From assembly GCA_018696595.1 (NCBI GenBank), contig JABHQW010000008.1, positions 38,484-102,483 on the forward strand: a stretch of 64,000 nt of DNA, read 5' to 3'. Below are positions 14,348-55,216 of this stretch, piece by piece. Both the position numbers and the translations under genes were made by a program. The DNA is from Candidatus Woesearchaeota archaeon. Its GTDB lineage: Archaea; Nanobdellota; Nanobdellia; Woesearchaeales; GW2011-AR9. The first letter of the stretch is position 1. Each line of letters starts with the position of its first letter. Below the pieces are notes generated by a model. That model had not been told where the DNA came from. It was given only the letters and a program-made list of their open reading frames with translations, and searched no databases.

Positions 14348-14814
14348 TTTAAGACTTCATTCAATTCTGTAAATTCTTCAATTTTGTGATCTGGAACTTC
14401 AAAATCATCTTTTGCTTTTAAAGTTTTATATTTTCCTTGATTTAGTAAGACAGTTTTAAGTCCCAATTCTTTCCCATAACGGATTTCTGAAGTTATTTTA
14501 TTGCCAACAACTAAAAAATGATAAGAAGGATATTTCTGCATTATCTTTCTAAAACAATTAATTTTGTTTTTATCTTCTAAAGGATAAAAGATTTCATCAA
14601 AAAAGTTTTTGATTCCTAAAATATTAATCTTCTCTTCTTGAATCTCTTTATTTCCTTTGGTAACTAAAATTTTCTTAGAATCGTCATTGATTAAAAATTC
14701 TCTCACTCCCAGAAATGGTTTTATTTCATTAAGATTAGAATAATCTGGTTTCACAACATTAGAACATAAATAGAGGGTATCATCAAGATCAAAAATGATT
14801 AACCTAGATTTCAT
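14335..14814 (-). CDS. HAD-superfamily hydrolase
   Basis: Motif I IIFDLDDTLY. Overlaps both neighbours by 11-13 nt, suggesting translational coupling. Confidence 0.6.
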   Translation of the reverse strand: MKSRLIIFDLDDTLYLCSNVVKPDYSNLNEIKPFLGVREFLINDDSKKILVTKGNKEIQEEKINILGIKNFFDEIFYPLEDKNKINCFRKIMQKYPSYHFLVVGNKITSEIRYGKELGLKTVLLNQGKYKTLKAKDDFEVPDHKIEEFTELNEVLKCKQ

Positions 14815-25661: not shown

Positions 25662-25663
25662 AA

Positions 25664-36229: not shown

Positions 36230-36579
36230 GCACTACATTTTGGATTCAATTATTAGGGGCTATTTTTGGTATAGCTATGTCATACTTCACTTATGTTAAA
36301 TTTAAAAGAAAAGAATTAAGTTCGACAGAAGTAGTTTTTTGGACAGGCGGATGGTTATTATTAATATTAGTAGCAATTATCCCGGAGATCTTAGATCCAA
36401 TAATTGGCCCATTAAACTTTTATCGCAGATTAGATTTTTTTGTAGTTTTAGGATTTTTCTTTTTATTGGGAATTGGATTTTACAATTATAGCCTCACTAA
36501 AAAAATGGAGAAAAAAATTGAACGTTTAGTTAGAACAGAAGCAATTAATCAAAGAAAGGATGATAAAATAGAAGAATGA
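36226..36579 (+). CDS. small 4-TM membrane protein (DUF2304-like GT2 partner)
   Basis: MSTTFWIQLLGAIFGIAMSYFTYVKFKRKELS... ATGA overlap with the GT2 stop. This pairing is typical of GtrA/DUF2304-type accessory proteins. Confidence 0.5.
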   Translation: MSTTFWIQLLGAIFGIAMSYFTYVKFKRKELSSTEVVFWTGGWLLLILVAIIPEILDPIIGPLNFYRRLDFFVVLGFFFLLGIGFYNYSLTKKMEKKIERLVRTEAINQRKDDKIEE

Positions 36580-39743: not shown

Positions 39744-41393
39744 TTATTTTTTATCTCTTTTTGCTATTATGGCATTAATTCTTTTATAATCTTCAAATGT
39801 ATGAATTTCAGTCCAACCTTTATTGACTTCTAAACAATCAACTTTGTGTCCTTGCTCAATTAACTTTTGAATAGCATAAGTAAAATCTTTGTTTTTCATT
39901 TCTTCATAATTCTCAGAATAGATTTGTTTTAGTAACTCGGTACCTTGTCCCGAAAACATTGCCATGCCAATAAATTCAAAATTTGCTTCATCCGGATCTA
40001 AATGTGAACCAATTTTAACAATTTCATTATGGTCATCAAAAGTTAATGATCTTTCACCTAGATAGGGGTCTCTTTTACCAACAACAAGATCTAACTTTTT
40101 ATTATACCGATTAGCATTTAATTTATATGAAGAATCAATCACTAAAGTAATATCTCCTTCTTTCTTAATTAATCTTTCAACAATGTCCTTATCAAAAAGA
40201 AGGTCAGAATAAAGCATTAGAATTTTTCCGTTCATTTTATCTTTAGCAGTCATGATTGAATGTAACGCTTTGGTGTTTTCATATTCAGAGTTATGATACT
40301 TATTAATTGCAGGAAGATTAATTTTTTCCCCACAATAGCCAGTAACTACACTAATATCATTAATCTTAAGAGAATTAAGAATCTCAATATTTCTTTGAAT
40401 AATTGGTTTGCCATTAATATCAAGTAAACAAAGAGGGGTATCTTTTAGGTATACATCATTGAGCTTAGGATCTATTGGCTTACCAGCGGCAGGAATAATA
40501 ACTTTAATCTCTTCAAAGTCTCCTTTAACATATTTCGTTTCATGGTCCTTCATTTCAAAAGTACCTTGAAGTTCAAACAATTCTTTTACTGGAATCAATT
40601 TTTCTGAGATTGTATGAATCCCTCCTTGTTCTTTTATTTCCTTAAGTGTTTCTTTAATAGAAGTTACTGCAGATCTAATCACATGATTAGCATAAATAAC
40701 CATCTTAACTTTAGGGTGATTTTTTATTTTATCCTCAGTCAAAGTGTAATAATTTGTAGGAACAATGACGATTGGAATATCTTCTTTCCACTCTTCAATA
40801 AACCTAATAACTTCTGCAGGATCACTTTGTTTAGAATGAATCATAATTGCATCTGCCCCTGCCTCAACATAAGCTTTGGCTCTTTTTTTTGCTTCTTCAT
40901 GACCCCATCCAGCAATGAGGGCTTCAACACGAGCAATAACCATGAAATCATCATCTCGTTGAGCATTTTTAGCAGCCATAATCTTTCCAGAGAACTCAGC
41001 AATAGATGCTAATTCTTGTTTCCCTCCAACTAAAAGGCTATTCTGTTTTGGAAACTTTTTATCTTCCATAATTACTCCTGCAATTCCGGCTGCCTCAAAT
41101 TTTTGAACCATCCGAATTACGTTAATAGAATTACCATAACCTTGATCAACATCAACAACAACGGGAATCGTAACTGCATCATTCATAGAAACTGCCGCAT
41201 CTAAATAGTCTGTCATAGTGAGAATATTAGCATCTGGAACAGCATGTGACGCCGAAACTTCTAAAGAAGAAGCCCAAACTCCTTCAAAGCCTGCTTTCTC
41301 GATTAATTTCGCAGTCAAACCATTATGAGCCCCAACTAAACGAAAGAACCCAGGAAGATTAAATAATTCACGCAATTTTTTTGATTTTTCCAT
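39744..41393 (-). CDS. pepM: phosphoenolpyruvate phosphomutase (PepM) fused to a C-terminal LicC/MobA-like nucleotidyltransferase domain
   Basis: N-terminal ~290 aa: FRLVGAHNGLTAKLIEKAGFEGVWASS, DVDQGYGN and the PepM-diagnostic EDKKFPKQNS (EDKx5NS, aa 110-119, nt 41037-41066). The C-terminal half is IIPAAGKP...LLDINGKPII...VVTGY...GWTEIHTFEDY. SD AGGTGA lies 5 nt upstream. Confidence 0.85.
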   Translation of the reverse strand: MEKSKKLRELFNLPGFFRLVGAHNGLTAKLIEKAGFEGVWASSLEVSASHAVPDANILTMTDYLDAAVSMNDAVTIPVVVDVDQGYGNSINVIRMVQKFEAAGIAGVIMEDKKFPKQNSLLVGGKQELASIAEFSGKIMAAKNAQRDDDFMVIARVEALIAGWGHEEAKKRAKAYVEAGADAIMIHSKQSDPAEVIRFIEEWKEDIPIVIVPTNYYTLTEDKIKNHPKVKMVIYANHVIRSAVTSIKETLKEIKEQGGIHTISEKLIPVKELFELQGTFEMKDHETKYVKGDFEEIKVIIPAAGKPIDPKLNDVYLKDTPLCLLDINGKPIIQRNIEILNSLKINDISVVTGYCGEKINLPAINKYHNSEYENTKALHSIMTAKDKMNGKILMLYSDLLFDKDIVERLIKKEGDITLVIDSSYKLNANRYNKKLDLVVGKRDPYLGERSLTFDDHNEIVKIGSHLDPDEANFEFIGMAMFSGQGTELLKQIYSENYEEMKNKDFTYAIQKLIEQGHKVDCLEVNKGWTEIHTFEDYKRINAIIAKRDKK

Positions 41394-41526
41394 AATTTCA
41401 CCTAATGCAAAAGCAGAATTGAAAACTTATAAAACTTATGAATTTGTCTTATTAATTAAGACTATTAATTAAAATATTAAATGAAAGTCTTCCCAAAAAA
41501 TAACAAAAATAACGTTAATCTTTACT

Positions 41527-41542
41527 CCATAGAATATATAAA
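41527..41542 (+). promoter_or_regulatory. promoter core CCATAGAATATATAAA
   Basis: Ends 23 nt before ATG 41565. An identical 16-mer lies at 46715-46730. Confidence 0.55.
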
Positions 41543-41564
41543 GGGACTACCTTAAATCAAATTT

Positions 41565-42620
41565 ATGAAAATCTTATTAGTCCATGAATTATTTATGCCC
41601 GACCAAGTTGGAGGGGGCGAAGTTTTAGTTTATGAATTAGCAAAAGGACTAATTAAGAAAGGTCACGAAGTCAAAGTCTTTACAACTGGAAAGCCAGAAA
41701 TTAAACAGTATGAGAATATCCCAACAGTTAGAATAAATATCAACAGATATTTGTTTAATTTTTCATTTCTAAAAATAAAGAAATTAGCTAAAGATTATGA
41801 TATCATTCAATCTTTTAGTTATAATGCTGCCTTCCCATCATATTTAGCTAGCAAACTTGGAAAAAAGCCAGTTATTTGTACCATCTTGGGAGTATACGGA
41901 AAAACTTGGAAGAAATTAAGAAAATTAAGTTTCTTTTGGAGAATGATGGAAAAAGTACAACTTAACAGAAAATTTAATGCCACTGTTTTCTTAAGCCCTC
42001 TCTCTCGTGAAATTGGTCATGAGATTGGGATGAAGATGGCCCCAAATTTTATAATTCCTTCAGGAGTTAATTTATCTAACACCCATCCCAATCTAAAAAA
42101 GGAGAAGTTTGTTCTTTTTGTAGGGAGGCTTTCAAAACAAAAAGGATTAGATTTACTTATTGATACAGCAGTTTTACTTCCAGAAATTAAGTTTGTTTTA
42201 GTAGGTGAAGGACCAGAAAAACAAAAGTTGCAACAAAAAGCAACGAAAAATGTTAGTTTTCTTCCTCCACAATACGGAGACAAATTGTTCAATCTATTTG
42301 GAAAAGCTCAGATTTTTTGTTTACCTTCTTACGCAGAAGGATTTCCAGTTGTTATAGTAGAAGCCATGGCCTCCGGTTGTGCCATTGTTTCAACTTTAGA
42401 TTATCCTTATCATGGCCAGTACGTACCAAATAGGTGTCCGAACGAACTAGCCACTACAATTGAGAAATTGTATAATAATGAAAAATTATTACAGAAATAT
42501 TCCAATAGCAATATTAAAGATTCTCGAGATTATACTTGGAATAACTTCGTTAATAAAACGGAACAAGTTTATCATTGGGTTCTAAATCAGAAAACATCAG
42601 AAAAAGAGATTGAAGATTAA
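41565..42620 (+). CDS. GT4 (group 1) glycosyltransferase
   Basis: MKILLVHELFMPDQVGGGEV and EX7E YAEGFPVVIVEAMASGCAIVST. Confidence 0.8.
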   Translation: MKILLVHELFMPDQVGGGEVLVYELAKGLIKKGHEVKVFTTGKPEIKQYENIPTVRININRYLFNFSFLKIKKLAKDYDIIQSFSYNAAFPSYLASKLGKKPVICTILGVYGKTWKKLRKLSFFWRMMEKVQLNRKFNATVFLSPLSREIGHEIGMKMAPNFIIPSGVNLSNTHPNLKKEKFVLFVGRLSKQKGLDLLIDTAVLLPEIKFVLVGEGPEKQKLQQKATKNVSFLPPQYGDKLFNLFGKAQIFCLPSYAEGFPVVIVEAMASGCAIVSTLDYPYHGQYVPNRCPNELATTIEKLYNNEKLLQKYSNSNIKDSRDYTWNNFVNKTEQVYHWVLNQKTSEKEIED

Positions 42621-42703
42621 TGCACAAGAATTATAAATGAATTATAACCATTAACTACCTATTAATTTAAAAAAATTAACGAGAATGGATTAATTAATTG
42701 AAA

Positions 42704-43825
42704 ATGATAAACCCAGCACAATTTTACGAACTTTTACAAACTAAAGAACTAACTATGTTTACCGGGGTGCCTGATTCTACCTTAAAACAATTATGTGCTT
42801 ACATCACAGATCATGTGCCTCCAGAAAGAAATATTATAACTGCAAATGAAGGTAATGCAATTGGTTTAGCAAGTGGGTATTACTTAAGCACAAACAACCC
42901 TGCCATCGTTTACATGCAAAATTCGGGATTGGGAAATTGTGTTAATCCCTTAACTTCTTTAACTGATGAAGATGTTTATTCTATTCCAATGTTATTGATT
43001 ATCGGCTGGAGAGGCGAACCAGGAAAAAAAGATGAACCGCAACATGTAAGAATGGGACAAATAACTCTGGAGATGTTGGATGTTCTAAAAATACCTTATT
43101 CTATTATTCCTGATACAATTGAAGAAACAGAAATAGAGGTTAGTAAAGCTGTTGTTCATATGAACAATCATAAAACACCTTATGCTCTTGTTGTAAGAAA
43201 AGGAACTTTCACGGAACATAAATTACAAAATACAAAAACAACAAATTATCCCCTTAATCGCGAACAAGCAATAAGGACCCTTGTTCCGTTATTAGAAGAA
43301 GATGCTATTATAGTTTCAACCACTGGAAAAACATCAAGAGAATTATTTGAATTTAGAGAAGAACTTCAACAAGGACACGAAAGAGATTTCTTAACTGTTG
43401 GTTCAATGGGCCATTCATCTTCAATTACTTTAGGAGTCGCCTTACAAAAACCAAAAAAGAAAGTATACTGTTTTGATGGTGATGGTGCGCTAATAATGCA
43501 CATGGGTGCCTTATCAACAATTGGCCAGTTACAACCAAAGAATCTGTGTCATATTGTATTGAATAATTTTGCACATGATTCGGTCGGGGGACAACCAACT
43601 GCTGCAGACAATATTGATATTCCGCAAGTTGCTCAAGCTAACGGATATAAGAAAGTGTTCTCGGCTCAAAGCGAAGAAGAGATTAGAGCTAAAATAAAAG
43701 AAATCCAACAACTAGAAGGGCCAACATTATTAGAAATTAAAGTAAACAAAGGGGCAAGAAAAGAATTAGGAAGACCCACTACAACACCAAAAGAGAACAA
43801 ATCTGAATTGATGAAGTATTTATAA
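42704..43825 (+). CDS. ppd: phosphonopyruvate decarboxylase (TPP-dependent; Ppd/Fom2/AepY family)
   Basis: ~373 aa single-chain TPP enzyme: FTGVPDSTLKQLCAYI, EGNAIGLASGYYLSTNNPAIVYMQNSGLGN, TPP motif FDGDGALIMHMGALSTIG...NN. It lies next to pepM. I chose ATG 42704; the track start at 42698 is TTG. Confidence 0.8.
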   Translation: MINPAQFYELLQTKELTMFTGVPDSTLKQLCAYITDHVPPERNIITANEGNAIGLASGYYLSTNNPAIVYMQNSGLGNCVNPLTSLTDEDVYSIPMLLIIGWRGEPGKKDEPQHVRMGQITLEMLDVLKIPYSIIPDTIEETEIEVSKAVVHMNNHKTPYALVVRKGTFTEHKLQNTKTTNYPLNREQAIRTLVPLLEEDAIIVSTTGKTSRELFEFREELQQGHERDFLTVGSMGHSSSITLGVALQKPKKKVYCFDGDGALIMHMGALSTIGQLQPKNLCHIVLNNFAHDSVGGQPTAADNIDIPQVAQANGYKKVFSAQSEEEIRAKIKEIQQLEGPTLLEIKVNKGARKELGRPTTTPKENKSELMKYL

Positions 43826-43907
43826 CTCATTCTCCTCGAAGGAAAATTTATTAAAATTTCTAACTAACTATACTCATAATTAAAAAGATTCAAAAAAGAC
43901 TCTTTAC

Positions 43908-44969
43908 TTAATTATCTTCCCAATCCTTTTTTGGAATTCTCCAGTCTTTTCCATAAACAAATTCGAGATGTTTTTCAGGATTAAAAGGGGCATGATACTC
44001 TTTCCCATAAAAATCTATTTTTCCTAATTGACTATAATGTTCTCTTAAAAACTTCCACTCAATGATTCTACAATCTTTTAGTGAAACTTTTTCCCATAAT
44101 AATTGAATTAATTTCCCTTTATAAGGAATAAAAGTAAATATAAATATCACTACATTAAAAAAACCTTTTAAAAACCAAGAAGGGATTCTTGAATCTTGTA
44201 GCTCTCCACCATGCCTTCTTATTAAAGTAATAAATGTATTTATTATCATCCTTCGCTTTTTTATGCCATCTCTAGCTGCCAACAACAACCAACCCAATAA
44301 CGCAGTAATTTTTGTTTTTTTCTTTAAACTTTTTGTTTGAAAAAAAACTAAATAGTCCTTTTTTTTCCTAAGAATATGAATATTAATATGTAATGAACCT
44401 TTCTTTCTAAATGTAATCATTCCACGATCAGCAAACCAACATACTTCAAACCCCTGATCTGATAGCTTATTAAGAGCATCTAGTAATGTATTTATATTAA
44501 TTTCTTCCCTCACCATACTAGTATCAATATCACAATCCCAAGATAATATTTTCTTATCCCTAACTGCTCCAAGAAGGGTACCACAATCTAATCTCCAAAT
44601 TAAGTTATGTTCTTCAAATACCTCTTTTATTTCTTCTAACGCTTTCACTGTTCCTTTTTCATGTGGGTTTTTTTCTTTTGAAGAAATTGTGGGCGTGTTC
44701 TTTCTAGAAATAACTTTTTCATTTAACTCCATTTGTATTTTTTGATTAATACTTTTATCTTTTATATTTCCAATTTTAGTTAAGTGTTTCCTAAAAGGAC
44801 CGAGATTTGTCCTAAATATTCTACAATTTAACCAAAGGTATCCTTTCTCTTTTGTAATAGTATACACATTTTCTCTGAAAGGGTCTAATGGTGGTGTAAA
44901 CCGAGTTGTTTTTACTATATCGCCAACTTTAAAAATTGTTTTTGTCATTTTCTTTATTATTCTCCACAT
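43908..44969 (-). CDS. LicD-family phosphotransferase with ~100-aa N-terminal extension
   Basis: LicD core LDCGTLLGAVRDKKILSWDCDIDTSM (DxD). A TATA-like ATTATAATTA lies 22-31 nt upstream. Confidence 0.7.
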   Translation of the reverse strand: MWRIIKKMTKTIFKVGDIVKTTRFTPPLDPFRENVYTITKEKGYLWLNCRIFRTNLGPFRKHLTKIGNIKDKSINQKIQMELNEKVISRKNTPTISSKEKNPHEKGTVKALEEIKEVFEEHNLIWRLDCGTLLGAVRDKKILSWDCDIDTSMVREEININTLLDALNKLSDQGFEVCWFADRGMITFRKKGSLHINIHILRKKKDYLVFFQTKSLKKKTKITALLGWLLLAARDGIKKRRMIINTFITLIRRHGGELQDSRIPSWFLKGFFNVVIFIFTFIPYKGKLIQLLWEKVSLKDCRIIEWKFLREHYSQLGKIDFYGKEYHAPFNPEKHLEFVYGKDWRIPKKDWEDN

Positions 44970-45019
44970 AGTTAATCAATAAAATCAAAGATTATAATTA
45001 CTAAGTAATTATAATTAAA

Positions 45020-46549
45020 TTATGTTTGTTTTATCCCCACAAAACCTATTCTTTCACCATACATCGCTTTTGCCCGAATTGGATCTCTTTTAAGTAACAA
45101 ATGATTAAGATCAAAGTTTTGTTTTTCTACCCAACATTCAAACTCTCCTGCACTTTTAAAACCGTCAACAGTTATATGGGAGTTTCTGAAAGTACCACTT
45201 TTTTTTACTTCTCCATCCCACCATAAATTTTCTTTTGTAACTTGTCGATAAAGCTCTGTTCCAGGAAGGGGATTCACAATGGCAACAGAATAACTATCTG
45301 CCCCACAACTAGCAGCAAACTTAATTGTTTCTTCCCTTTCTTCTCTTGTTTCGCCTGGAAAACCAACCATCCAAAAAGTATGAGTATACAACCCGGCATC
45401 AATAGCAGTTCTAATTGTTTGAGGAATAAGTTCTAAATCCAACCTTTTATTGGCCTGATCTAAAGTTTTTTGCACACCACTTTCACATGCTAAAGTGACT
45501 TGATAGCAACCCGAATCTGCCATTTTTTCAAATAATTCCTGATGCTTACCCTGGTGATAATCTACTCTGATTCCATTCGGCGGGCACCAAGGAATATTCA
45601 AGGGTTTCATTAGATCACATAATTCATTTAATTTTGAAAGGTCAGATGTTAGAGTATCGTCTTCAAACTGAACTTCTTGAATACCATGATTTTCAATAGC
45701 GTCTTTTATTTCTGCAACAATTTCTTGAGGGCTTCTCCACCTAACTTTTCTTCCCCAAGTAACGGGAGTAGTACAATAAGTACAACGTTCCGGACATCCC
45801 CTAGAAGCCATAACATTCAATACCCTTTTTCTTTCAGTATCTGCATTATGAAATAAACCAACATTAAAGTACCCTTCCATATTCATAAGATGCCTAGCGG
45901 GAGAAGGTAAATCTTGGAGATTAAGTGTTTCTCCAGATAAAGGATTAATTACTATTTTACCTGCTTCGGATGAAGAATTTTCTCTATGAACTAAACCGGG
46001 AATCAAACTATAATCACCACCAGTTAATAAACAATCAATTAAATGTGCAAATCTCAGTTCACTTTCTCCAACCATTGCAAAATCAATATTTTGATTATCC
46101 ATGAAAGCCAATTCTTTTTCTAGATTTGATTCTTGGTTTCTAGGATCATTGGCATAAAGATAATCTGACACACTATTAGTGATATAGTTTCCACCTACAA
46201 TAACTGGGAGATCTCTTTTAACCTCTTTTGTAATCCGAGCTAAGGCATGAGAGCCTTGAACAAGATTAGAAAAGAGTACAGAAATCCCAACAATGTCTGG
46301 ATTAATTTCTGAGATATATTTAGCAATATCAGTATCTGATTCTCCCACAATAACTATTCCCTTCTCCCCGGAGGATTCAGAATGGTGATAGCCTTCTAAT
46401 GCAGTATCACGAACATAAACGTCGTGGCCTTCTTTTTCAAGAACTGCCGCCAAATAACCCAAACCCAAAGGAGGTTGTATTCGGTTAACCCCTCCTTCAA
46501 TGCCCCTGATATTTGGAGAGAATAACAAAATCCTACTTTTATTTACCAT
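45020..46549 (-). CDS. cobalamin(B12)-binding radical SAM enzyme (class B methylase-like)
   Basis: N-terminal B12-binding Rossmann-like domain (ILLFSPN...PLGLGYLAAVLEKEGHDVYVRD...DIVGISV). Radical SAM cluster motif ASRGCPERCTYC (CxxxCxxC). Confidence 0.85.
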   Translation of the reverse strand: MVNKSRILLFSPNIRGIEGGVNRIQPPLGLGYLAAVLEKEGHDVYVRDTALEGYHHSESSGEKGIVIVGESDTDIAKYISEINPDIVGISVLFSNLVQGSHALARITKEVKRDLPVIVGGNYITNSVSDYLYANDPRNQESNLEKELAFMDNQNIDFAMVGESELRFAHLIDCLLTGGDYSLIPGLVHRENSSSEAGKIVINPLSGETLNLQDLPSPARHLMNMEGYFNVGLFHNADTERKRVLNVMASRGCPERCTYCTTPVTWGRKVRWRSPQEIVAEIKDAIENHGIQEVQFEDDTLTSDLSKLNELCDLMKPLNIPWCPPNGIRVDYHQGKHQELFEKMADSGCYQVTLACESGVQKTLDQANKRLDLELIPQTIRTAIDAGLYTHTFWMVGFPGETREEREETIKFAASCGADSYSVAIVNPLPGTELYRQVTKENLWWDGEVKKSGTFRNSHITVDGFKSAGEFECWVEKQNFDLNHLLLKRDPIRAKAMYGERIGFVGIKQT

Positions 46550-46714
46550 AAGTAATCTTCCTCTAAATCAATATCTAATAATTGTATTTTTTCGCATCAA
46601 GGGTCTTTTATAAAAGTTATGAATATGTAATGCAGTCAAAATCCTTTTATAAAGAACCCTAATGAATTAAATGTGGCCAAATCCACATTAGAATTATAAA
46701 AATGAATCGAAGAA

Positions 46715-46730
46715 CCATAGAATATATAAA
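46715..46730 (+). promoter_or_regulatory. promoter core CCATAGAATATATAAA
   Basis: Ends 25 nt before ATG 46755. Identical to 41527-41542. Confidence 0.55.
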
Positions 46731-46754
46731 TACTTTAATTTATTTAGTTGTTAA

Positions 46755-49700: not shown

Positions 49701-50249
49701 AACAAGTGTATTCAAGGAATGGCAGGGGTTAGTTTTGTTATTTGTAGTAAGAAACAACTTGAAAGAATTAAAGAATACCCACGCCGATCTTTTTATTTAA
49801 GCTTATATGACCAATACGAATATTTCATTAAAAATTACCAGATGAGGTTTACCCCCCCAGTACAAACATTATATGCTCTTAAAAAAGCAATTGCAGAATT
49901 TTTAGAGGAAGGATATGAAAACCGAGTTGCAAGATATACTCAGAGTTGGAAAGTTCTAAGAGCAGGAGTTCAAGAATTAGGATTTAAGATATTAACTCAA
50001 CCTGAAAATGAGTCCAACCTTTTAATTACTTTACTTAATCCAGAACACCCTAATTTTAATTTTAATATTCTTCATGACAAATTATTTGAAAAAGGATTTA
50101 CTATTTATCCTGGAAAAGTGGGAAAAGTTAATTCATTTCGGTTATCTAATATGGGTGCCATTGATGAAAAGGATATTAGCGAATTCTTAGTAACATTTGA
50201 AGGTGTATTAAATGAAATGGGAACAATTGGACAGCAAAAACCAACATAA
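46755..50249 (+). CDS. four-domain fusion: Fe-dependent alcohol dehydrogenase (phosphonoacetaldehyde reductase-like) + HxGH cytidylyltransferase + LicC/PntC-like nucleotidyltransferase + 2-aminoethylphosphonate:pyruvate aminotransferase (PhnW-like)
   Basis: One uninterrupted 1164-aa ORF. aa 1-~385: Fe-ADH (GGGSVIDMAKS, PTTSGTGSE, HAISYP...PHGHATG). aa ~393-525 (from nt 47931): VYIGMVADSIHHGHINII (HxGH). aa ~539-780 (from nt 48369): AIILAAGMGTRLRPLTEETPKCLIKV. aa ~793-1164 (from nt 49131): RNILLNPGPATTTDTV...MSTSNKCIQGMAG (class V aminotransferase with PLP Lys). Confidence 0.85.
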   Translation: MSLAKQREYFGIGKIDKLKEILALERAKKVFLVTTKRSFSSSSAKERIAPQLKDYQVTIFNEFSQNPKLEDIKRGIKIFKESNSDLIIAIGGGSVIDMAKSINVLSAQTLAPEIYIIEKVPFEKKGCPLVAIPTTSGTGSEATHFAVLYINKSKYSLAHEEYILPNYAIIDPELTFSLPKAITATTGIDVLSQSIESYWSVNSTEEAKAYAQEAIKLVLKDLKTAVNYPCKEARVAMAKAANLSGKAINIAKSTAPHAISYPFTSYFNIPHGHATGLTLGPILVFNANINETNCTDPRGAEYVRLTINKIISFFGSTCAADTCKKIQYLMRDIGLETNIKRLGIDSEEKVNLIIEKGFNPDRIKNNPKRIEPEQLRKILNEISQETEIKPEKMETVYIGMVADSIHHGHINIISEARKLGDVIVGLVTDDAAQSYKRRPILSFSDRARIIKNIKGVTKIVPQNTLDYVPNIEKYKPSIIMHGDDWKKGSQRIIRERALNAVEKYGGRIIDLPYTKGISTTEFIEKVKSCSLNKKNTTQAIILAAGMGTRLRPLTEETPKCLIKVNNKTLLEYSLDCLKENGIQEVIIVIGYRGELIKQKIGNDYHGLKVAYIENLRFSETGSMYSLSLAKKEIKNDILVLESDLLYESSAINTILNSNHRNTMVISKLLHSGDDVYICTNEKEEIINLGKEISEEEKKRAKGAMIGISKYSGEFLAELFKKAEEDYEKGEVNYHYEECVFATSHENNPVKAIFCPELHWIEIDNENDLKKATEVTYPKIRNLENNKQKSSSIKRNILLNPGPATTTDTVKYAQIVPDICPREKEFGDVMKYINNNLIEIAGGNTEEDVCVLFGGSGTAAMDATINSVVPPDKKILVINNGAYGERIAKIARAYSLGCIELKFEWDALPDLKIIEDQLNENPEISCVAMIHHETTTGLLNQVKEIGELVKNHNKVFIVDTISSFAGIPMNIKEFNIDFMMSTSNKCIQGMAGVSFVICSKKQLERIKEYPRRSFYLSLYDQYEYFIKNYQMRFTPPVQTLYALKKAIAEFLEEGYENRVARYTQSWKVLRAGVQELGFKILTQPENESNLLITLLNPEHPNFNFNILHDKLFEKGFTIYPGKVGKVNSFRLSNMGAIDEKDISEFLVTFEGVLNEMGTIGQQKPT

Positions 50250-50273
50250 TCAGAACTTAAAAAATTTATAAAA

Positions 50274-51020
50274 ATGATTACTAGAAATCAACAGAAAGAA
50301 AAATATGAAACTGATTTAAGATACCATTCAGATTCGGACAACTTAAATCAAACGTTTGATAACCGCTATTCATTACGTAATAATTGGGGATTATATTTTG
50401 AATTAATAAAATTTAAAGAGATGGTTAAGCTCTTAAATAAAAGTAAAGTTAGGTTAAAGAATAAAAAAATCTTAGATTTAGGTTGTCACCGTGGCTTTAC
50501 TTCTAACCTTTTAGCACAATTAAAAGGATCTTCTGAAAACATTTATGGGGCAGATTTTATCAATTCTTTTGTTGAGCAAGCCCAAGAAATTAATCCTGGT
50601 GTTAAATTCTTTCAACATGATGTTTATAATGAGCTACCTTTTGAGAACTCTTATTTTGATTTAGTTACATTAATTTACTTGTTTAATGCCCTTCCCTCCC
50701 AAGACCAACAAGAAGTTGTTAAGAATATTTCCAAAAAAATAAAAGTAGGAGGTCATATCTTATTCTTTGACTTGTTTGAATCCAGAATGTCACGAGTAAC
50801 ACAAAGATTAGCTCACCTTAACAAGAGATATACTCCTTTGCCACATTTTAATGATAAAATTATTAAAAAATTGTTCCCGGACTTTAAGATAATCCAATCT
50901 AAAAAAATAATTAATTTGTTAACTTATCGAACAATTGGGTTTTCGTATGGTTTAGCAGAATTTTTAGATAAAATGTTACCATGCGAGTATTATATCACAT
51001 TATTAAGAAAAATAAAATAA
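50274..51020 (+). CDS. class I SAM-dependent methyltransferase
   Basis: Motif I ILDLGCHRGFTS and post-I GADF. Confidence 0.65.
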   Translation: MITRNQQKEKYETDLRYHSDSDNLNQTFDNRYSLRNNWGLYFELIKFKEMVKLLNKSKVRLKNKKILDLGCHRGFTSNLLAQLKGSSENIYGADFINSFVEQAQEINPGVKFFQHDVYNELPFENSYFDLVTLIYLFNALPSQDQQEVVKNISKKIKVGGHILFFDLFESRMSRVTQRLAHLNKRYTPLPHFNDKIIKKLFPDFKIIQSKKIINLLTYRTIGFSYGLAEFLDKMLPCEYYITLLRKIK

Positions 51021-51021
51021 A

Positions 51022-51672
51022 ATGGGCGAAAAAAGAATAAAAGAAAATGTGGAATTTTGGGATTGGGTATTCAGATTTGTATCTAAACCAGTCACACACT
51101 TTTTTGTTAAGTTCACTAAGATAACCCCTAACCAAATCACCATATTAAGTTTTATTTTAGGCTTATTAGCCGCGGGACTAATTTTAATGGGAGATTATAA
51201 TTACTTAGTTGTTGCAGGCGTCTTAGTATTAATTTTCATGGTCTTAGATAATGTTGACGGGGAGATTGCTAGAATAACTAAGAAAACAAGTAAGTTAGGC
51301 CATTGGTTAGATGGAGTTGTGGGTTTTATTATAAATGAAGCATTAATTTTAGCCATGGCATTAAGTATTGGTAGCCCATTATCTCTATCCGTTGGATTAT
51401 TAACAATGATTGCTTTTCCAATGCAATATTTATTAATATTCTTTTACAAAGCAGAGATTGTTAAAGAGAATGCCCCAATTACAATTGGATCTGGAAGCCT
51501 AATCAATAAAATAAAGTATTTATATGGTTCAACCTTCTTTCAATTTACAGTTGCGATAGGTTGCTTTTTCAATAAGCTACTATGGGTTTTAATCTTCTTT
51601 GCAGTCATCGGAAACTTATTCTGGATGGGGACATTGTTTGTCCAATATATCAACTTAAAACGAAAGTTTTAA
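51022..51672 (+). CDS. CDP-alcohol phosphotransferase family membrane protein (variant motif)
   Basis: DNVDGEIARITKKTSKLGHWLDGVVG = DxxDGxxARx8GxxxDxxxG. 5-6 TM helices. Starts 2 nt after the upstream stop. Confidence 0.7.
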   Translation: MGEKRIKENVEFWDWVFRFVSKPVTHFFVKFTKITPNQITILSFILGLLAAGLILMGDYNYLVVAGVLVLIFMVLDNVDGEIARITKKTSKLGHWLDGVVGFIINEALILAMALSIGSPLSLSVGLLTMIAFPMQYLLIFFYKAEIVKENAPITIGSGSLINKIKYLYGSTFFQFTVAIGCFFNKLLWVLIFFAVIGNLFWMGTLFVQYINLKRKF

Positions 51673-51697
51673 AGAAGGCGGTTGTTCTGACTATAGA

Positions 51698-52687
51698 ATG
51701 GTAAACAATTTGTTGAGTCATTATAAAGTCTCCCCAAAATTAGAAGTGAAATTAACAGCAAGTTTTCCTTTATCTCGGAGTACAGGAATTCAACAAGCTT
51801 ATAATTCTCAAGAACCAGATTGGGACTTATTATTTACGCATTGGGGTAAAGAGATTATATATATTAATCCTAATATCCCCCAATTACAGTGGAGAGAGAT
51901 ATGCTTAGCAACCCATTGGAATCAATTTGAAGAAGCAGTTAAAAAAAATGATAAATTAGTACTAGATGGGAGAAAAATCGATGGTTTTTCAATTCAAGCT
52001 CAACGTAAAGGGGCTTTAAAAGATTTAAGTTTTTTATCTACTGCAAATTATTGTTTTACTCTTACCGATGATGACCAACATATTTTAATGGGAGTTAGGG
52101 GAGGAAGTGATAATGTAGGACAAGCAGTAACAATGCCATTGGGGGTTGTTTCTTATCCTTCAGAACCTGACCCTAATAATTTAGATCCAATTACGGCTTC
52201 AGTTTACTCCGAAGCAAATGAAGAAGGGGGCATTTTACCAAATGAATATTCTTCATTAAATTGTATTGGAACCTTGCGACAAGAGCAATGTTCTACACCA
52301 GTAAATAATCTTATTTGGATTGGAAGATTAAAGATTACAGGTGAAGAAATTATAGAGAGACACAAAGTAGCCATTGAATTATATAATAAATTTGGAAATG
52401 ATTCTGAGAACATATTAAAGGCACGAATGGAGTTGAGAAAAAGATTTTTATTTAATCCAAGATTTCCAAAAGATGCTTGGGAAAATTCAAGATTAAATTT
52501 ATTTTCTAATGATCCCGAGAAAATGGTTGCAGATCTCAGTTATTTAATTGACCAAGGAAAAGAAATTAAACATGGATTATATGGTGCTTTAGCCTTATAT
52601 ATTTTAAACCAACATGGAGATAAATATTATAGTCAATTAATGAATATACCACAATTTAAAGAAAAGATTCATGATCAAAAATTATAG
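51698..52687 (+). CDS. hypothetical protein, weak Nudix-box-like segment
   Basis: 329-aa ORF. SEANEEGGI (nt 52208-52234) partly matches the Nudix core REx2EExGU, but the upstream Gx5E spacing does not fit. Confidence 0.4.
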   Translation: MVNNLLSHYKVSPKLEVKLTASFPLSRSTGIQQAYNSQEPDWDLLFTHWGKEIIYINPNIPQLQWREICLATHWNQFEEAVKKNDKLVLDGRKIDGFSIQAQRKGALKDLSFLSTANYCFTLTDDDQHILMGVRGGSDNVGQAVTMPLGVVSYPSEPDPNNLDPITASVYSEANEEGGILPNEYSSLNCIGTLRQEQCSTPVNNLIWIGRLKITGEEIIERHKVAIELYNKFGNDSENILKARMELRKRFLFNPRFPKDAWENSRLNLFSNDPEKMVADLSYLIDQGKEIKHGLYGALALYILNQHGDKYYSQLMNIPQFKEKIHDQKL

Positions 52688-52774
52688 GAACAATAAAAGA
52701 AATAATCCATATCAAAAAGTGAATATATCAATGTAGCATAATATTTATATAATCAATTTTTGTTTTCTCTTTAA

Positions 52775-53479
52775 ATGAAAGCATTAATTACTGCGGCCGG
52801 AATGGGTACGAGACTGGGTAATATTACTAAAGACACAAACAAGTGTATCTTAAATGTCGGAAACAAACCATTACTTCTCCATTCAGTCGAGATTCTCAAG
52901 AATGTAGGAATTGATGACATATATGTAATTATTGGCCATCACGGAGAGAAAATTAAACAACTTCTTGGAGATAAAGTTAATTATATCTATAATCCTGATT
53001 ATGCCACTACTAGTATTCTAGGTTCTATTGTTCTTGCTAAAGAACATTTATTCCAGTCAGAATTTGTTTTTCTAACCGGAGATTCTTTGCTCCATCCCGA
53101 ACTCATCAAGGGCTTATTAGAACCAAGTCAAGATGTTCTTGTTTCTATTGAGCTTAAAAAATGTAATGAAGAAGATATGAAAGTTGTTTTAGAGAACCAT
53201 AATATTAAAGAAATAAGTAAAACAATATCTTTGGATCAGGCCCAGGGAGAATATACTAGCCTTACTAGATTCCCAAAAGAGTCTTCCACTGTTTTTTTTA
53301 ATGAAGTTGAAAAAGCAATAAACAATCAGAATTGTAAAACTTATGTTGCTGACATCCTTTTAAATTTACAAAATTTAGGGTTTAATCTTAAACCAATATA
53401 TACCAATAAACCAAGAATTGAAATTGATTTCTTAGAAGACTTAGAAAAAGCCCAAGCATTGTACAAACAATATTTTTGA
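52775..53479 (+). CDS. LicC/PntC-like (MobA-like) nucleotidyltransferase
   Basis: MKALITAAGMGTRLGNITKDTNKCIL...VIIGHHGEKIKQ. TATA ATTTATATAA lies 23 nt upstream. Confidence 0.75.
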   Translation: MKALITAAGMGTRLGNITKDTNKCILNVGNKPLLLHSVEILKNVGIDDIYVIIGHHGEKIKQLLGDKVNYIYNPDYATTSILGSIVLAKEHLFQSEFVFLTGDSLLHPELIKGLLEPSQDVLVSIELKKCNEEDMKVVLENHNIKEISKTISLDQAQGEYTSLTRFPKESSTVFFNEVEKAINNQNCKTYVADILLNLQNLGFNLKPIYTNKPRIEIDFLEDLEKAQALYKQYF

Positions 53480-53549
53480 TTTCTAGTATGAAAATTATAA
53501 GAATATAGAAAAGATAAAAAGAAAATTAAAAAAGAAATTAATAAAAAAA

Positions 53550-54278
53550 TTAAAATTTCTTTTCTTCAACACCTAACCGATCACAAATTTGACTAATACT
53601 AATTACTTTCAAATCATATTGATCTGCTAAGCCCCTAAGTTGTGCAGGGGAAGCCATTTTGTAAGGGTCATCAGGATGTAATATTTCCATATCAACTACC
53701 ACTGGAGGATTGATTCCAGCTAACTTCATCAATTCAATTCCCGATTCTGTATGACCTTGTCTAGCATAAAGTCCCTGAGGATTACCTGCAATTGGAACAA
53801 GATGTCCTGGTCTAACCAAGTCTTCTGGGGTTGATGCTCTTTCTTCTAATTCTCCGGAAACTAATCGTGAATAATCAAAAGGCCTACCGTTCTCTCCAGT
53901 TTGATAAGGAACAAATCGACCGCCAAGAATATTCGCAGTTTGTGCTCTTTCTGCAGCAGAACAACCAGAATGACCATACAATGTATCGGTAGTTAAACGA
54001 AAATTAGTTTGACTACTTTCTTGGTTATCACTTGCATCTACTTGACCAGGCAACCCAAACTGAGTTGCATAATCTTCAGGCATAAAAATAGCAATAAATG
54101 CCCCTTTAGCATTATCTAAAACAAATTTCATTGTTGTGGGTGTTATTTTAGCAGCAGAAACAAGAAAATCTCCTTCTCCTTCCCTACCTGGATTATCCAT
54201 TAAAATAATTGGTTTGCCTTGTTGGATATCAATTAAAGCATCATCCAAACTATCTAATTTTACGCCATAATTATTCAT
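53550..54278 (-). CDS. ribB: 3,4-dihydroxy-2-butanone-4-phosphate synthase
   Basis: IDIQQGKPIILMDNPGREGEGDFLVSAAKITP and RPGHLVPI, RQGHTE motifs. I chose ATG 54278 with SD GAGGT 8 nt upstream; the track start at 54332 is TTG. Confidence 0.8.
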   Translation of the reverse strand: MNNYGVKLDSLDDALIDIQQGKPIILMDNPGREGEGDFLVSAAKITPTTMKFVLDNAKGAFIAIFMPEDYATQFGLPGQVDASDNQESSQTNFRLTTDTLYGHSGCSAAERAQTANILGGRFVPYQTGENGRPFDYSRLVSGELEERASTPEDLVRPGHLVPIAGNPQGLYARQGHTESGIELMKLAGINPPVVVDMEILHPDDPYKMASPAQLRGLADQYDLKVISISQICDRLGVEEKKF

Positions 54279-54446
54279 TTTATTTACCTCTTCACATTTT
54301 TTAAAAATGTTAAATTTATAAAGTAATCTCAAATTCTGATATATAAGTTTTATGCACTACAAATCAGACTACGAAAACCTAAATGATTTAAAACCCACAT
54401 TCCAAAATAGAGATTAATTTAACAGAAAGACAAGAGATCCAAAAAA

Positions 54447-55208
54447 ATGAAAACCAAATATCCATTTAAAACAATAACAAAAACTGAAGAGCAACTTCAT
54501 TCTTGGACTTATGTATTTCTACTTAAGTATCCAACAATCTTATTAACCTGGCTATTTGCAAATTTTACTAACTTCTCTCCAAACTTAGTTTCTTTCCTAG
54601 GGCTGATTCCTTCTTTTATTAGTGCTTATTTTTATGTTAATGGGAACTTACTATTTGGTGCTCTTTTTTATCTCTTGGCTTGGCTTCTTGATGGAGTTGA
54701 TGGAAGATTAGCAAGAGTCAAAAGCCTAGGGTCAAAGTACGGGGCATTTTATGACAATTATGTTGGCCAAATTGGTTTTATTATAATGATCATGGGATTT
54801 TTTTATGGTATAGCTAGAATAAAACAAAATTCTTTATGGTTGTTGTTGGGCATTCTAGTTTACTTTCTGGTTACTTTCCGCAGCTTGATTGCTTTAAAAG
54901 TTAAAACCTTGATGGGAAATGAATATCGTGTCAACTTAGATGAAGTAAATGTTGAAGAAGCAAGTATTAAAGAAACAAAAGGATTATGGGGATTAGCTGT
55001 AAGATTACAAAATAAACTGAACCAAAAAGGTTTAGTTGAACCATTTAACCTAATTGATATGATTGTATTGATTTTTATTATTGGCCCAATTGCGGAATTA
55101 ATTTTATCTGGTTCTCTAATATATGTGATAATATTTGCATTGATTATGATTATAATAAAAGAAATCATCTGGTTTCTCTATTATAGAAAGATTTTAAAAG
55201 ATAGGTGA
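54447..55208 (+). CDS. CDP-alcohol phosphotransferase family membrane protein (variant motif, paralog of 51022-51672)
   Basis: DGVDGRLARVKSLGSKYGAFYDNYVG = DxxDGxxARx8GxxxDxxxG. Polytopic. Confidence 0.7.
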   Translation: MKTKYPFKTITKTEEQLHSWTYVFLLKYPTILLTWLFANFTNFSPNLVSFLGLIPSFISAYFYVNGNLLFGALFYLLAWLLDGVDGRLARVKSLGSKYGAFYDNYVGQIGFIIMIMGFFYGIARIKQNSLWLLLGILVYFLVTFRSLIALKVKTLMGNEYRVNLDEVNVEEASIKETKGLWGLAVRLQNKLNQKGLVEPFNLIDMIVLIFIIGPIAELILSGSLIYVIIFALIMIIIKEIIWFLYYRKILKDR

Positions 55209-55216
55209 AATTAAAA

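Follow-up and report, generated by a model that had tools for sequence, protein, structure and literature searches.

Three described systems of phosphonate synthesis come close to the gene cluster reported here, which occupies positions 39744-55208 of a 64,000-nt stretch of a contig from a Woesearchaeota (DPANN) archaeon; that whole stretch is called the window below. In the Pnt pathway of Treponema denticola and Atopobium rimae (Rice et al. 2019, PMC6697681), Tde1415 is a characterised fusion of the cytidylyltransferase (CyTase) PntC with a 2-aminoethylphosphonate (AEP) transaminase (AEPT) that makes AEP activated with cytidine monophosphate (CMP-AEP), and a general logic of phosphonyl tailoring has been proposed in which nucleotidyl activation is followed by LicD-type transfer (PMC6697681). 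In the early fosfomycin pathway of Streptomyces, the chemistry of Fom1 (CyTase fused to phosphoenolpyruvate (PEP) mutase, PepM), Fom2 (phosphonopyruvate decarboxylase, Ppd), FomC (an iron-dependent alcohol dehydrogenase, Fe-ADH) and Fom3 (a B12-dependent radical S-adenosylmethionine (SAM) enzyme) is established (PMC8158854), and the Fom1 CyTase yields CMP-activated 2-hydroxyethylphosphonate (CMP-HEP) (PMC6697681, PMC8158854). PepM is found in 1.6% of RefSeq archaeal genomes, in 12 neighbourhoods, all of them uncharacterised (PMC8942020). Our literature search yielded no account of phosphonate biosynthesis by DPANN archaea and nothing relevant on 2-hydroxypropylphosphonate (2-HPP) outside fosfomycin. 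The third system, thaumarchaeal methylphosphonate synthesis, is to our knowledge the only experimentally supported archaeal case.

We consider it probable that the window encodes a biosynthetic phosphonate-tailoring cluster of a Woesearchaeota/Nanoarchaeota archaeon, placed inside a glycosylation locus centred on the oligosaccharyltransferase AglB. Its parts are predicted with different confidence: high for de novo formation of the carbon-phosphorus (C-P) bond and the AEP/CMP-AEP branch, and good for the HEP/CMP-HEP branch, to which close homology and context point. Transfer to glycans and/or lipids is likely by analogy, and both the acceptor (glycan, glycoprotein or lipid) and the final products are predicted in the same manner. 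PepM, Ppd, CMP activation and envelope transfer follow a logic already known from bacteria (PMC6697681). Novel features are the lineage, a four-domain enzyme that would serve both branches, the combination of an AEP module of the Pnt type with an HEP/radical SAM module of the Fom type, and a set of atypical CDP-alcohol phosphotransferases.

With the Pnt pathway the cluster shares a PepM bearing the EDKx5NS motif and fused to a PF12804 domain, a Ppd, a PntC-AEPT fusion with residues matching those of Tde1415, and an adjacent LicD-family transferase and glycosyltransferases; LicD exceeds the PF04991 cut-off and a glycan-biosynthesis neighbourhood (glycosyltransferases of family 4 (GT4), the flippase Wzx, AglB) is present, transfer itself being a predicted function. 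Unlike the Pnt systems, the window belongs to an archaeal (DPANN) host, in its case an Fe-ADH and a Fom1-type CyTase are joined to PntC-AEPT, and an HEP branch, two CDP-alcohol phosphotransferases and a B12-radical SAM enzyme are added. All four enzyme types of the early fosfomycin pathway are also represented: the window's CyTase is nearest to the solved Fom1 domain, and the radical SAM clade co-occurs with CyTase-PepM fusions, Ppd and Fe-ADH. Here, however, the CyTase is fused to the reductase rather than to PepM, the window is without FomD and Fom4, and the CMP-phosphonate is predicted to be transferred, not hydrolysed.

The thaumarchaeal pathway (Nitrosopumilus maritimus PepM, Ppd, Pdh and MpnS) resembles the cluster in its archaeal PepM/Ppd/Fe-ADH route to HEP and in that the phosphonate is presumed to be esterified to a polymer of the cell surface. 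An earlier reading of the same DNA from its letters alone (the original prediction) had nevertheless set the two apart, and rightly so: the window, which comes from another archaeal lineage, has no match to MpnS or to other HEPD-type dioxygenases, whereas an AEP branch, CMP activation and a radical SAM enzyme are added. The Lic phosphocholine system (LicA-LicD of Streptococcus pneumoniae and Haemophilus) has counterparts in a 234-aa LicC-like CyTase and LicD, with activation by cytidine triphosphate (CTP) followed by transfer to a glycan, but the window is without a choline kinase or transporter, and its head groups would, by prediction, carry a C-P bond and be synthesised de novo from PEP. 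Finally, AF2299 and IPCT-DIPPS of Archaeoglobus fulgidus (4O6M, 4MND) have the membrane topology and the D1xxD2GxxAR...GxxxD3 residues of the window's CDP-alcohol phosphotransferases, and differ from them at the fourth Asp (D4), which is Gly in both window paralogues and is replaced by Gly, Ala, Ser or His in most of the homologues found in related phosphonate/radical SAM clusters.

PepM, Ppd and the four-domain protein

Open reading frames (ORFs) of at least 100 aa in the window were searched with the profile libraries Pfam and NCBIfam (curated equivalog cut-offs), and solved relatives were sought in the PDB. The following genes and domains would form and activate the phosphonates; PnAA stands for phosphonoacetaldehyde and TPP for thiamine pyrophosphate.

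39744-41393, - strand: PepM-NTP protein, 549 aa; PEP_mutase domain and C-terminal nucleotidyltransferase domain
40524-41393, - strand: PEP mutase (PepM) domain, aa 1-290; PF13714, E 1.7e-56
39756-40508, - strand: divergent LicC/PntC-like nucleotidyltransferase domain, C-terminal in the PepM protein, aa ~296-546; NTP_transf_3, E 2.9e-5 (below the Pfam cut-off)
42698-43825, + strand: phosphonopyruvate decarboxylase (Ppd), single-chain TPP enzyme; TIGR03297, 507 bits (cut-off 312.5)
46755-50249, + strand: four-domain fusion, 1164 aa; Fe-ADH, Fom1-type CyTase, PntC-type CyTase, PhnW/AEPT
46755-47909, + strand: Fe-ADH domain, aa 1-385, candidate phosphonoacetaldehyde reductase (PnAA to HEP); PF00465, E 1.5e-42
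47937-48350, + strand: Fom1-type (PF01467, CTP_transf_like) CyTase domain, aa ~395-532, candidate HEP cytidylyltransferase; HxGH motif present
48366-49124, + strand: PntC-type (PF12804/PF00483, NTP_transferase) CyTase domain, aa 538-790, candidate AEP cytidylyltransferase; Tde1415-like
49131-50249, + strand: 2-aminoethylphosphonate:pyruvate aminotransferase (PhnW/AEPT) domain, aa ~793-1157; TIGR03301, 430 bits (cut-off 360.8)

In the proposed pathway, PepM would convert PEP to phosphonopyruvate, from which Ppd would form PnAA; the PhnW domain would then transaminate PnAA to AEP, and the adjoining PntC-type domain would turn AEP into CMP-AEP. For these four steps the sequences give support at the equivalog or near-equivalog level. 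Close homology and context suggest, for the second branch, that the Fe-ADH domain reduces PnAA to HEP and that the adjoining Fom1-type CyTase domain activates it as CMP-HEP. All four activities predicted to act after PnAA would thus reside on one 1164-aa polypeptide. That the transaminase works in the biosynthetic direction is argued by its fusion to a PntC-type CyTase, as in Tde1415, together with the failure to find any catabolic gene in the window.

The motif EDKx5NS reads EDKKFPKQNS in the PepM domain (residues 110-119, nt 41037-41066). The domain passes the model TIGR02320 marginally (319.8 bits, cut-off 319.55) and stays below the cut-offs of the prpB (170 < 354) and carboxyPEP (CPEP) mutase (116 < 420) models. 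Its solved relatives are the PepM 5UNC (E 1e-91), phosphonopyruvate hydrolase (E 7e-87) and the Mytilus enzyme 1M1B (E 7e-79), methylisocitrate lyase and carboxyPEP mutase being far more distant (about E 1e-25). The Asn of the NS motif is present, whereas phosphonopyruvate hydrolase 2DUA has a Thr (KDTS) at the aligned position. On the strength of the EDKx5NS motif and of this Asn/Thr discriminator, the domain is predicted to be a PEP mutase rather than a phosphonopyruvate hydrolase, and to produce phosphonopyruvate from PEP. Fusion of PepM to a PF12804 domain is the commonest architecture of this enzyme (Ppm; PMC6697681). The fused nucleotidyltransferase has its best matches in AglF among NCBIfam models (E 1.9e-11) and in LicC (E 9e-6) and T. 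denticola PntC (E 2e-5) in the PDB, and its G-x-G-T-R-L loop is replaced by AAGKPIDPKL. As for the decarboxylase, the beta and alpha sulfopyruvate decarboxylase models (ComE and ComD) give 130 and 97 bits, below their cut-offs of 221 and 148, and the profile scores point to Ppd, not ComDE.

Within the four-domain protein, the Fe-ADH domain has an identity of 44-52% with its counterparts in Ppd-FeADH fusions from Candidate Phyla Radiation (CPR) bacteria and Woesearchaeota. Since its near relatives are fused to Ppd, a Rosetta-stone argument favours its assignment as a phosphonoacetaldehyde reductase. The Fom1-type domain finds its best solved relative in 5X3D, the CyTase of Fom1 (E 1.1e-43 over 133 residues), the runner-up, human ECT, being 27 orders of magnitude weaker (E 3e-16). 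The PntC-type domain is closest to 6PD1/6PD2, the Tde1415 PntC-AEPT of T. denticola (E 6.5e-26), and the alignment with 6PD1 retains the catalytic R15 and K25 as well as the ligands of the AEP amine, E104 and E196 (Tde1415 numbering; residue roles from PMC6697681). The best PhnW model for the AEPT domain, TIGR03301, is the PhnW-AepZ equivalog, which is of the biosynthetic type, and two-domain PntC-AEPT proteins (~615 aa) are 52% identical to aa 538-1155 of the fusion.

None of 1.84 billion representative proteins covered all four domains of the 1164-aa protein in an exhaustive phmmer search, the best matches being PntC-AEPT (~615 aa), CyT-FeADH (~510 aa) and Ppd-FeADH fusions; the four-domain architecture thus appears to be unique to this lineage. 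Three-domain NTP-CyT-FeADH proteins were considered as close analogues and set aside: their domain order differs, identity is only ~35%, and one lies in a locus without PepM. The fusion can be read as two mirror-image modules sharing PnAA, in which a putative reductase and HEP-type CyTase face a putative AEP-type CyTase and transaminase. It is not an assembly artefact, because the same gene order and the identical 1164-aa ORF recur in independent ENA and Logan assemblies and the protein is encoded on 20 contigs of up to 496 kb; these observations rule out a chimera.

The profile searches recover all that the original prediction had named among these enzymes: the PepM with its motif at those very nucleotides, the Ppd-type decarboxylase, the PhnW-like and Fe-ADH domains, and at least four nucleotidyltransferase domains, namely the PepM-fused domain, the CTP_transf_like (aa 403-524) and NTP_transferase (aa 539-~790) domains of the fusion, and the 234-aa protein. 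It had also pointed to ways in which the assignment might fail, among them a PepM domain grouping with non-mutases and a decarboxylase of the ComDE type; PepM is nearest to solved PEP mutases, and the decarboxylase lies well above the cut-off of the Ppd model alone, so that both outcomes favour the original prediction. It had not noted the Fom1/FomC/Fom3-like logic, the union of four domains in one protein, or the recurrence of similar clusters in other Nanoarchaeota.

The radical SAM clade and the candidate transferases

The remaining genes of the cluster are predicted to modify and transfer the activated phosphonates, or are interspersed with those that do.

43908-44969, - strand: LicD-family phosphotransferase, candidate CMP-phosphonate:glycan transferase; PF04991, 39.6 bits (cut-off 22.6), N-terminal part only
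45020-46549, - strand: cobalamin-dependent radical SAM enzyme, candidate Fom3-like methyltransferase; N-terminal B12-binding and Radical_SAM domains
50274-51020, + strand: class I SAM methyltransferase; Methyltransf_25, E 2e-14
51022-51672, + strand: CDP-alcohol phosphotransferase 1; PF01066, 42.6 bits (cut-off 22)
51698-52687, + strand: 329-aa protein (ORF329); no Pfam or NCBIfam match, kept beside CyT-PepM in the syntenic Nanoarchaeia cluster
52775-53479, + strand: free-standing LicC-like nucleotidyltransferase, 234 aa; NTP_transf_3, E 4e-15
53550-54332, - strand: RibB-like 3,4-dihydroxy-2-butanone-4-phosphate synthase; NCBIfam 113.6 (cut-off 177), carries an insertion
54447-55208, + strand: CDP-alcohol phosphotransferase 2; PF01066, 48 bits, overlaps the start of a GT4 gene

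By analogy with known systems, the cobalamin radical SAM enzyme would methylate a CMP-phosphonate, most likely CMP-HEP to CMP-2-hydroxypropylphosphonate as Fom3 does, and a head group might receive an additional methyl group from the SAM methyltransferase. From CMP the phosphonyl group would then pass, through LicD and the two atypical CDP-alcohol phosphotransferases, to lipid alcohols and/or to the sugar hydroxyls of surface or lipid-linked glycans, and the GT4 enzymes, Wzx and AglB would assemble, flip and attach the glycan.

The CxxxCxxC motif of the radical SAM enzyme is formed by C251, C255 and C258. Among NCBIfam models it ranks the Sden_1168 family first (259 bits), before HpnJ (137) and PhpK (105), all far below their cut-offs. 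In published similarity networks Fom3 groups with MoeK5 and HpnJ, and SD1168, whose physiological role is unknown, falls in the same main cluster (PMC9204698). Homologues of 45-56% identity occur in Omnitrophota, Planctomycetia, Nitrospinota, Saccharibacteria, Parcubacteria, metagenome-assembled genomes (MAGs) of Methanosarcinales, Nanoarchaeota/Woesearchaeota and many SAR11 single-cell genomes. We surveyed the context of 57 such loci from GTDB species representatives with the domains of the window, and a neighbour-joining tree of the homologues resolved three clades. In the clade of the window, PepM lies within 10 kb in 16 of the 22 loci that have at least 7 kb on both flanks. The PepM-positive loci encode a PF01467 CyTase in ~20 of 24 cases (mostly fused N-terminally to PepM, as in Fom1), Ppd in ~18 and Fe-ADH in ~12. 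Conversely, none of the PepM, CyTase, Ppd and Fe-ADH genes was found in the surveyed loci of the other two clades, which are more distant (42-45% and 31-35% identity). On account of this co-occurrence with PepM and of the Fom1-, Fom2- and FomC-like parts of the cluster, a Fom3-like methylation suggests itself: the clade would methylate a CMP-activated two-carbon phosphonate, in the window most plausibly CMP-HEP to CMP-2-hydroxypropylphosphonate, a proposal by analogy whose chances we place slightly short of even.

A further locus of the clade, in Candidatus Nitrohelix vancouverensis (L003, CP048620.1), holds Ppd and PhnW clustered with the radical SAM gene, two methyltransferases and a CDP-alcohol phosphotransferase devoid of D4; no PepM lies within 10 kb. 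In SAR11-type loci (the marine L066 and the single-cell genomes L017, L019, L036, L038, L039 and L059) the radical SAM gene is accompanied by CyT-PepM, Ppd, a weakly matching class V aminotransferase, a second PF01467 CyTase, an adenylylsulfate kinase and PhyH, the whole sitting within a nonulosonic-acid sugar cluster. A similar pairing of radical SAM and adenylylsulfate kinase with ppm and ppd has been noted in Campylobacter (PMC8942020).

The closest NCBIfam family of LicD is the Mf1 cholinephosphotransferase (E 1.8e-16), and the N-terminal DxD region of the family is present (motif LLGAVRDKKILSWDCDID). CDP-alcohol phosphotransferase 1 matches AF2299 (4O6M) at E 4.6e-17 and carries DNVDGEIAR...GHWLDGVVG; the second paralogue carries DGVDGRLAR...GAFYDNYVG. 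The full signature D1xxD2GxxAR(x8)GxxxD3xxxD4 is found in neither, both having Gly at D4 in a register confirmed against AF2299 and IPCT-DIPPS. The residue is likewise lost (Gly, Ala, Ser or His) in most homologues beside the same radical SAM clade (L003, L004, L007, L008, L016, L018, L053, L059), in hosts that comprise Nitrohelix, three Nanoarchaeota lineages, a Planctomycetia MAG, a Methanosarcinales MAG and a SAR11 single-cell genome. Enzymes with this loss may form a subfamily of their own, adapted to CMP-phosphonate donors or to another acceptor; we found no literature on CDP-alcohol phosphotransferases devoid of D4, nor on CDP-alcohol transferases that use CMP-AEP. The SAM methyltransferase is weakly similar to phosphoethanolamine N-methyltransferase 5WP4 (E 3.6e-6) and possibly performs N- or O-methylation of the phosphonate head group, and the 234-aa nucleotidyltransferase aligns over its full length with its best solved relative, LicC 1JYK (E 1.7e-15).

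Profile searches of the 64 kb gave no PhnX, PhnA, PhnY/Z or PalA-type hydrolase above cut-off and no C-P lyase. Likewise, no window ORF matched an MpnS/HEPD-type enzyme, some ORFs being without any match (25637-27076, 22091-23056, 51698-52687 and others), and no FomD (DUF402) hydrolase or Fom4/HppE epoxidase was detected in any window ORF. A hydrolase of the HAD family (17756-18523) was examined as a PhnX candidate and dismissed, as NCBIfam gives it only a generic HAD-IA match below the cut-off. As PhnX-type enzymes and C-P lyase, MpnS/HEPD, FomD and Fom4 were not found, the cluster is taken to be neither catabolic nor a methylphosphonate or fosfomycin cluster; with neither FomD nor Fom4, no fosfomycin would be made.

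ORF329 has a homologue of 36-39% identity at L004:6081-7118, beside CyT-PepM, in a locus where no Ppd lies within 10 kb. It has no Pfam match even at E 10, a word-index search returned only the protein itself, and a profile search against the PDB gave nothing besides a chance DnaJ match. A conserved xE(A/G)xEExGI stretch resembles the Nudix box, and hhalign aligns this region with E. coli MutT at a probability of 3%; the AlphaFold2 single-sequence model (pLDDT 35.6) is unusable. The RibB-like gene lies between the LicC-like gene and CDP-alcohol phosphotransferase 2, is not conserved in related loci, and is accompanied by no other riboflavin gene in the window.

Alternative readings of the cluster

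Several observations weigh against the interpretation given above. The margin by which PepM clears its equivalog cut-off is a mere 0.25 bits, and the phosphonopyruvate hydrolase model gives it almost the same score (317 bits, short of the 374 required). With 177 bits on the Phn_Fe-ADH model TIGR03405, the Fe-ADH domain stays under the cut-off of 424, and in the PDB, which contains no solved PnAA reductase, it resembles only generic group III alcohol dehydrogenases. The four cytidylyltransferase domains exceed the needs of the model, and an NTP-CyT-FeADH three-domain protein at one locus (L064) accompanies LicD and TagF-like genes, with no PepM; the domains of the fusion are therefore not in themselves phosphonate-specific. 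The fourth Asp of the CDP-alcohol phosphotransferase signature is regarded as the catalytic base, and because this residue is missing, the activity of both paralogues and their acceptor are uncertain. As regards the radical SAM enzyme, members of its clade occur at loci devoid of phosphonate genes (L065; also L028, L029 and L042), an Omnitrophota copy being found amid unrelated genes, its partner in clusters of the SAR11 type is an aminotransferase-like gene and not Fe-ADH, and the nearest curated family is named for P-methylation. Its proposed likeness to Fom3 is drawn from domain architecture, gene co-occurrence and the HpnJ/SD1168 neighbourhood.

Part of this evidence can be arranged differently. 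The products might be phosphonolipids, the CDP-alcohol phosphotransferases moving AEP, HEP or 2-HPP from CMP to lipids of the archaeol or diacylglycerol type; as DPANN archaea usually cannot make such lipids, these might be scavenged from the host. Eukaryotic AEP lipids are made from CMP-AEP by ethanolaminephosphotransferases of the CDP-alcohol family, and the window has two genes of the CDP-OH_P_transf family, whose closest curated families are the archaetidylinositol-phosphate, PIP and DIPP synthases and whose homologues recur beside the radical SAM gene (L003, L004, L016, L018, L053). Against this stand the surroundings of glycosyltransferases, flippase, AglB and LicD, the overlap of one of the two genes with a GT4 gene in a pair kept together in relatives, a single UbiA-family prenyltransferase as the only lipid-synthesis gene nearby, and the missing Asp, which makes any assignment within the family uncertain; we deem phosphonolipids a possible though rather doubtful outcome, one that overlaps with transfer to glycans. 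A similarly modest chance is given to a radical SAM enzyme unlike Fom3, which would methylate phosphorus to yield a phosphinate (SD_1168/PhpK), act on the AEP branch, or serve a sugar or lipid unrelated to phosphonates. Its leading match to the Sden_1168 "P-methyltransferase" family, that to PhpK, the obscure role of SD1168 (PMC9204698), the clade members remote from phosphonate genes, and the loci of Nitrohelix and SAR11 type (L003, L066) where aminotransferases occur and Fe-ADH does not, would all agree with this. Yet the family scores fall far below cut-offs, the window offers no H-phosphinate route (no HEPD, phosphonoformate genes or CPEP mutase), co-occurrence with PF01467 CyTase, Ppd and often Fe-ADH is strong, and HpnJ, the second-best family, co-clusters with Fom3 in the published networks.

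It is also conceivable, if unlikely, that the LicC-like enzyme, LicD, the SAM methyltransferase and the CDP-alcohol phosphotransferases perform ordinary phosphate-ester decoration of the phosphocholine, phosphoethanolamine or glycerol-phosphate type. The 234-aa enzyme is indeed closest to LicC, a CTP:phosphocholine cytidylyltransferase, LicD to a cholinephosphotransferase, and the methyltransferase, weakly, to a phosphoethanolamine-modifying one, and at L064 the NTP-CyT-FeADH fusion keeps company with LicD and TagF-like genes but not PepM; family membership alone, however, cannot separate PntC from LicC (PMC6697681), no choline or ethanolamine kinase or transporter was found in the window, and the genes in question stand among those of PepM, Ppd and the four-domain enzyme, the stretch from 46755 to 53479 being on one strand with tight spacing. 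That the cluster makes a diffusible natural product, for instance an antibiotic of the fosfomycin kind, and not a phosphonate bound to the cell is very improbable: Fom1-, Fom2-, FomC- and possibly Fom3-like functions are all there, but the window yielded neither FomD (DUF402) nor Fom4/HppE nor any of the resistance or export genes usual in antibiotic clusters, and the cluster is embedded in a glycan assembly locus with LicD, CDP-alcohol phosphotransferases, GT4s, Wzx and AglB. Still less credit is due to phosphonate catabolism. PhnW is reversible and best known from AEP degradation; here the model that it fits best, PhnW-AepZ, is a biosynthetic one, a CyTase is fused to the domain, PepM and Ppd are adjacent, and the 64 kb hold none of the degradative enzymes sought (PhnX, PhnA, PhnY/Z, PalA-type hydrolase, C-P lyase).

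Under the preferred reading, a biosynthetic cluster for the phosphonate tailoring of glycans and/or lipids, host-dependent and genome-reduced DPANN archaea would, as the cluster and its relatives suggest, invest in C-P chemistry for their envelope, with bearings on host recognition, phosphatase resistance and phosphorus economy. The four-domain enzyme is a compact candidate catalyst for one-pot conversion of PnAA to CMP-HEP and CMP-AEP, and CDP-alcohol phosphotransferases devoid of D4 may be the yet-unidentified transferases of phosphonyl tailoring pathways. The radical SAM clade, which spans DPANN archaea, CPR bacteria, Nitrospinota, Planctomycetota and many SAR11 cells, is a large family linked to phosphonates, as yet uncharacterised and represented in abundant marine bacteria; to know which reaction it catalyses would close a gap in our picture of marine phosphonate cycling. 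More speculatively, and with doubt prevailing, what is known as early fosfomycin chemistry (HEP, CMP-HEP, methylation by a B12-radical SAM enzyme) might be mainly a widespread means of envelope tailoring, elaborately exemplified by the present cluster; the radical SAM clade would make CMP-2-hydroxypropylphosphonate or a related methylated CMP-phosphonate, and the D4-less enzymes would be dedicated CMP-phosphonate transferases. If so, glycans or scavenged lipids of DPANN archaea would bear head groups that are C-methylated and contain a C-P bond, and SAR11 chemistry could supply hydroxyalkylphosphonate esters to marine dissolved organic matter. Repeta et al. are said to have reported in 2016 that such marine esters include a precursor of the propylene released on degradation by C-P lyase.

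The glycosylation locus and its other genes

The phosphonate genes sit inside an archaeal glycosylation locus, of which the following features are relevant here; PPIase stands for peptidyl-prolyl isomerase and SDR for short-chain dehydrogenase/reductase.

32155-35532, + strand: AglB/STT3 oligosaccharyltransferase with C-terminal parvulin PPIase domain, 1125 aa; STT3, E 6e-37, Rotamase_3, E 1e-29
36576-37715: GT4 glycosyltransferase, upstream of the cluster
37688-39709, - strand: double SDR, 673 aa; N-terminal half RmlD/GDP-fucose-synthase-like, C-terminal half dTDP-glucose 4,6-dehydratase, 542 bits, over cut-off
41565-42620, + strand: GT4 glycosyltransferase; Glycos_transf_1, E 5.5e-27, Glyco_transf_4, E 2.7e-20
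55205-56353, + strand: GT4 glycosyltransferase; Glycos_transf_1, E 4e-28, almost wholly outside 39744-55208

On its upstream side the cluster is flanked by AglB/STT3, a GT2, a DUF2304 protein, a GT4 and the RmlD-like/RmlB double SDR, and on its downstream side by the CDP-alcohol phosphotransferase, a GT4, a dTMP-kinase-like protein, the Wzx flippase, PMT_2-type GT-C proteins (four in the surroundings) and a UDP-GlcNAc 2-epimerase. The archaeal surface-glycosylation setting that the original prediction had described is thereby borne out (AglB/STT3-PPIase, GT2, GT4, PMT_2 GT-C, Wzx, RmlB and epimerase), as is its gene inventory: LicD, two CDP-alcohol phosphotransferases, the B12-radical SAM enzyme and the SAM methyltransferase were all found by profile searches. 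Of the two GT4 enzymes it had counted within 39744-55208, one lies wholly inside, whereas the other begins only 4 nt before the end of this interval. Its view that the gene set is biosynthetic, with no C-P lyase, phosphonatase or MpnS/HEPD-type enzyme, agrees with the searches of the window ORFs and with the fusion of the transaminase to a PntC-type CyTase, and the phosphonate head groups it had envisaged on glycans, glycoproteins or lipids are supported at the sequence level, the products and the acceptor being predictions.

GC content is ~31% overall and 0.30-0.335 in the phosphonate cluster, as compared with 0.28-0.34 across the window, without compositional anomaly. Nanoarchaeia MAG loci (L004, L005, L023) have the STT3, GT2, DUF2304 and GT4 flank in common with the window, both flanks match, and a simpler phosphonate module (CyT-PepM, Fe-ADH, radical SAM, CDP-alcohol phosphotransferase) occupies the same site; the gene order CDP-alcohol phosphotransferase, GT4, dTMP-kinase-like protein is also common to the window and L004. 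Because composition is normal and relatives carry a phosphonate module at the same locus, a recently transferred foreign island is ruled out, and the phosphonate genes are a variable cassette of a conserved locus. Relatives of the cluster exist in at least 7 other Nanoarchaeota/Woesearchaeota species-level genomes. The window bears further archaeal markers, namely TFB, ribosomal protein uS2 of the archaeal/eukaryotic type, a RadB-like recombinase, AMP phosphorylase and Lrp/AsnC regulators, and no tRNA or Rfam family was detected anywhere in it. Proteins that match its TFB and AMP phosphorylase to within 90% identity are assigned by NCBI to Nanoarchaeota or Candidatus Woesearchaeota archaeon, in keeping with a DPANN host.

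At L004 the STT3 product is truncated, with no rotamase domain listed. The double SDR gene lies directly downstream of the PepM gene, and PF16363-type dehydratases have been noted earlier in archaeal ppm neighbourhoods (PMC8942020). The protein at 56388-57692 (- strand) combines an NTP_transf_5-like domain with a dTMP-kinase-like P-loop domain and has a counterpart at L004:13381-14751, adjoining the pair of CDP-alcohol phosphotransferase and GT4 genes. Farther upstream, a 1418-aa protein (4717-8973, + strand) has an autopeptidase S59 domain of the Nup98 type as its sole Pfam match (E 3.5e-7) and adjoins a 503-aa protein (3159-4670, + strand) weakly similar to a putative S-layer protein; these two may be surface proteins that receive the glycans. 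The same side of the window also encodes a CofD-related YvcK-like protein (311 bits), a GlmU-like bifunctional enzyme, HAD hydrolases and a carbamoyltransferase (coordinates listed: 14804-15772, 13205-14347 and 18526-20247, all - strand), which suggests further sugar-nucleotide or glycan-modification functions.

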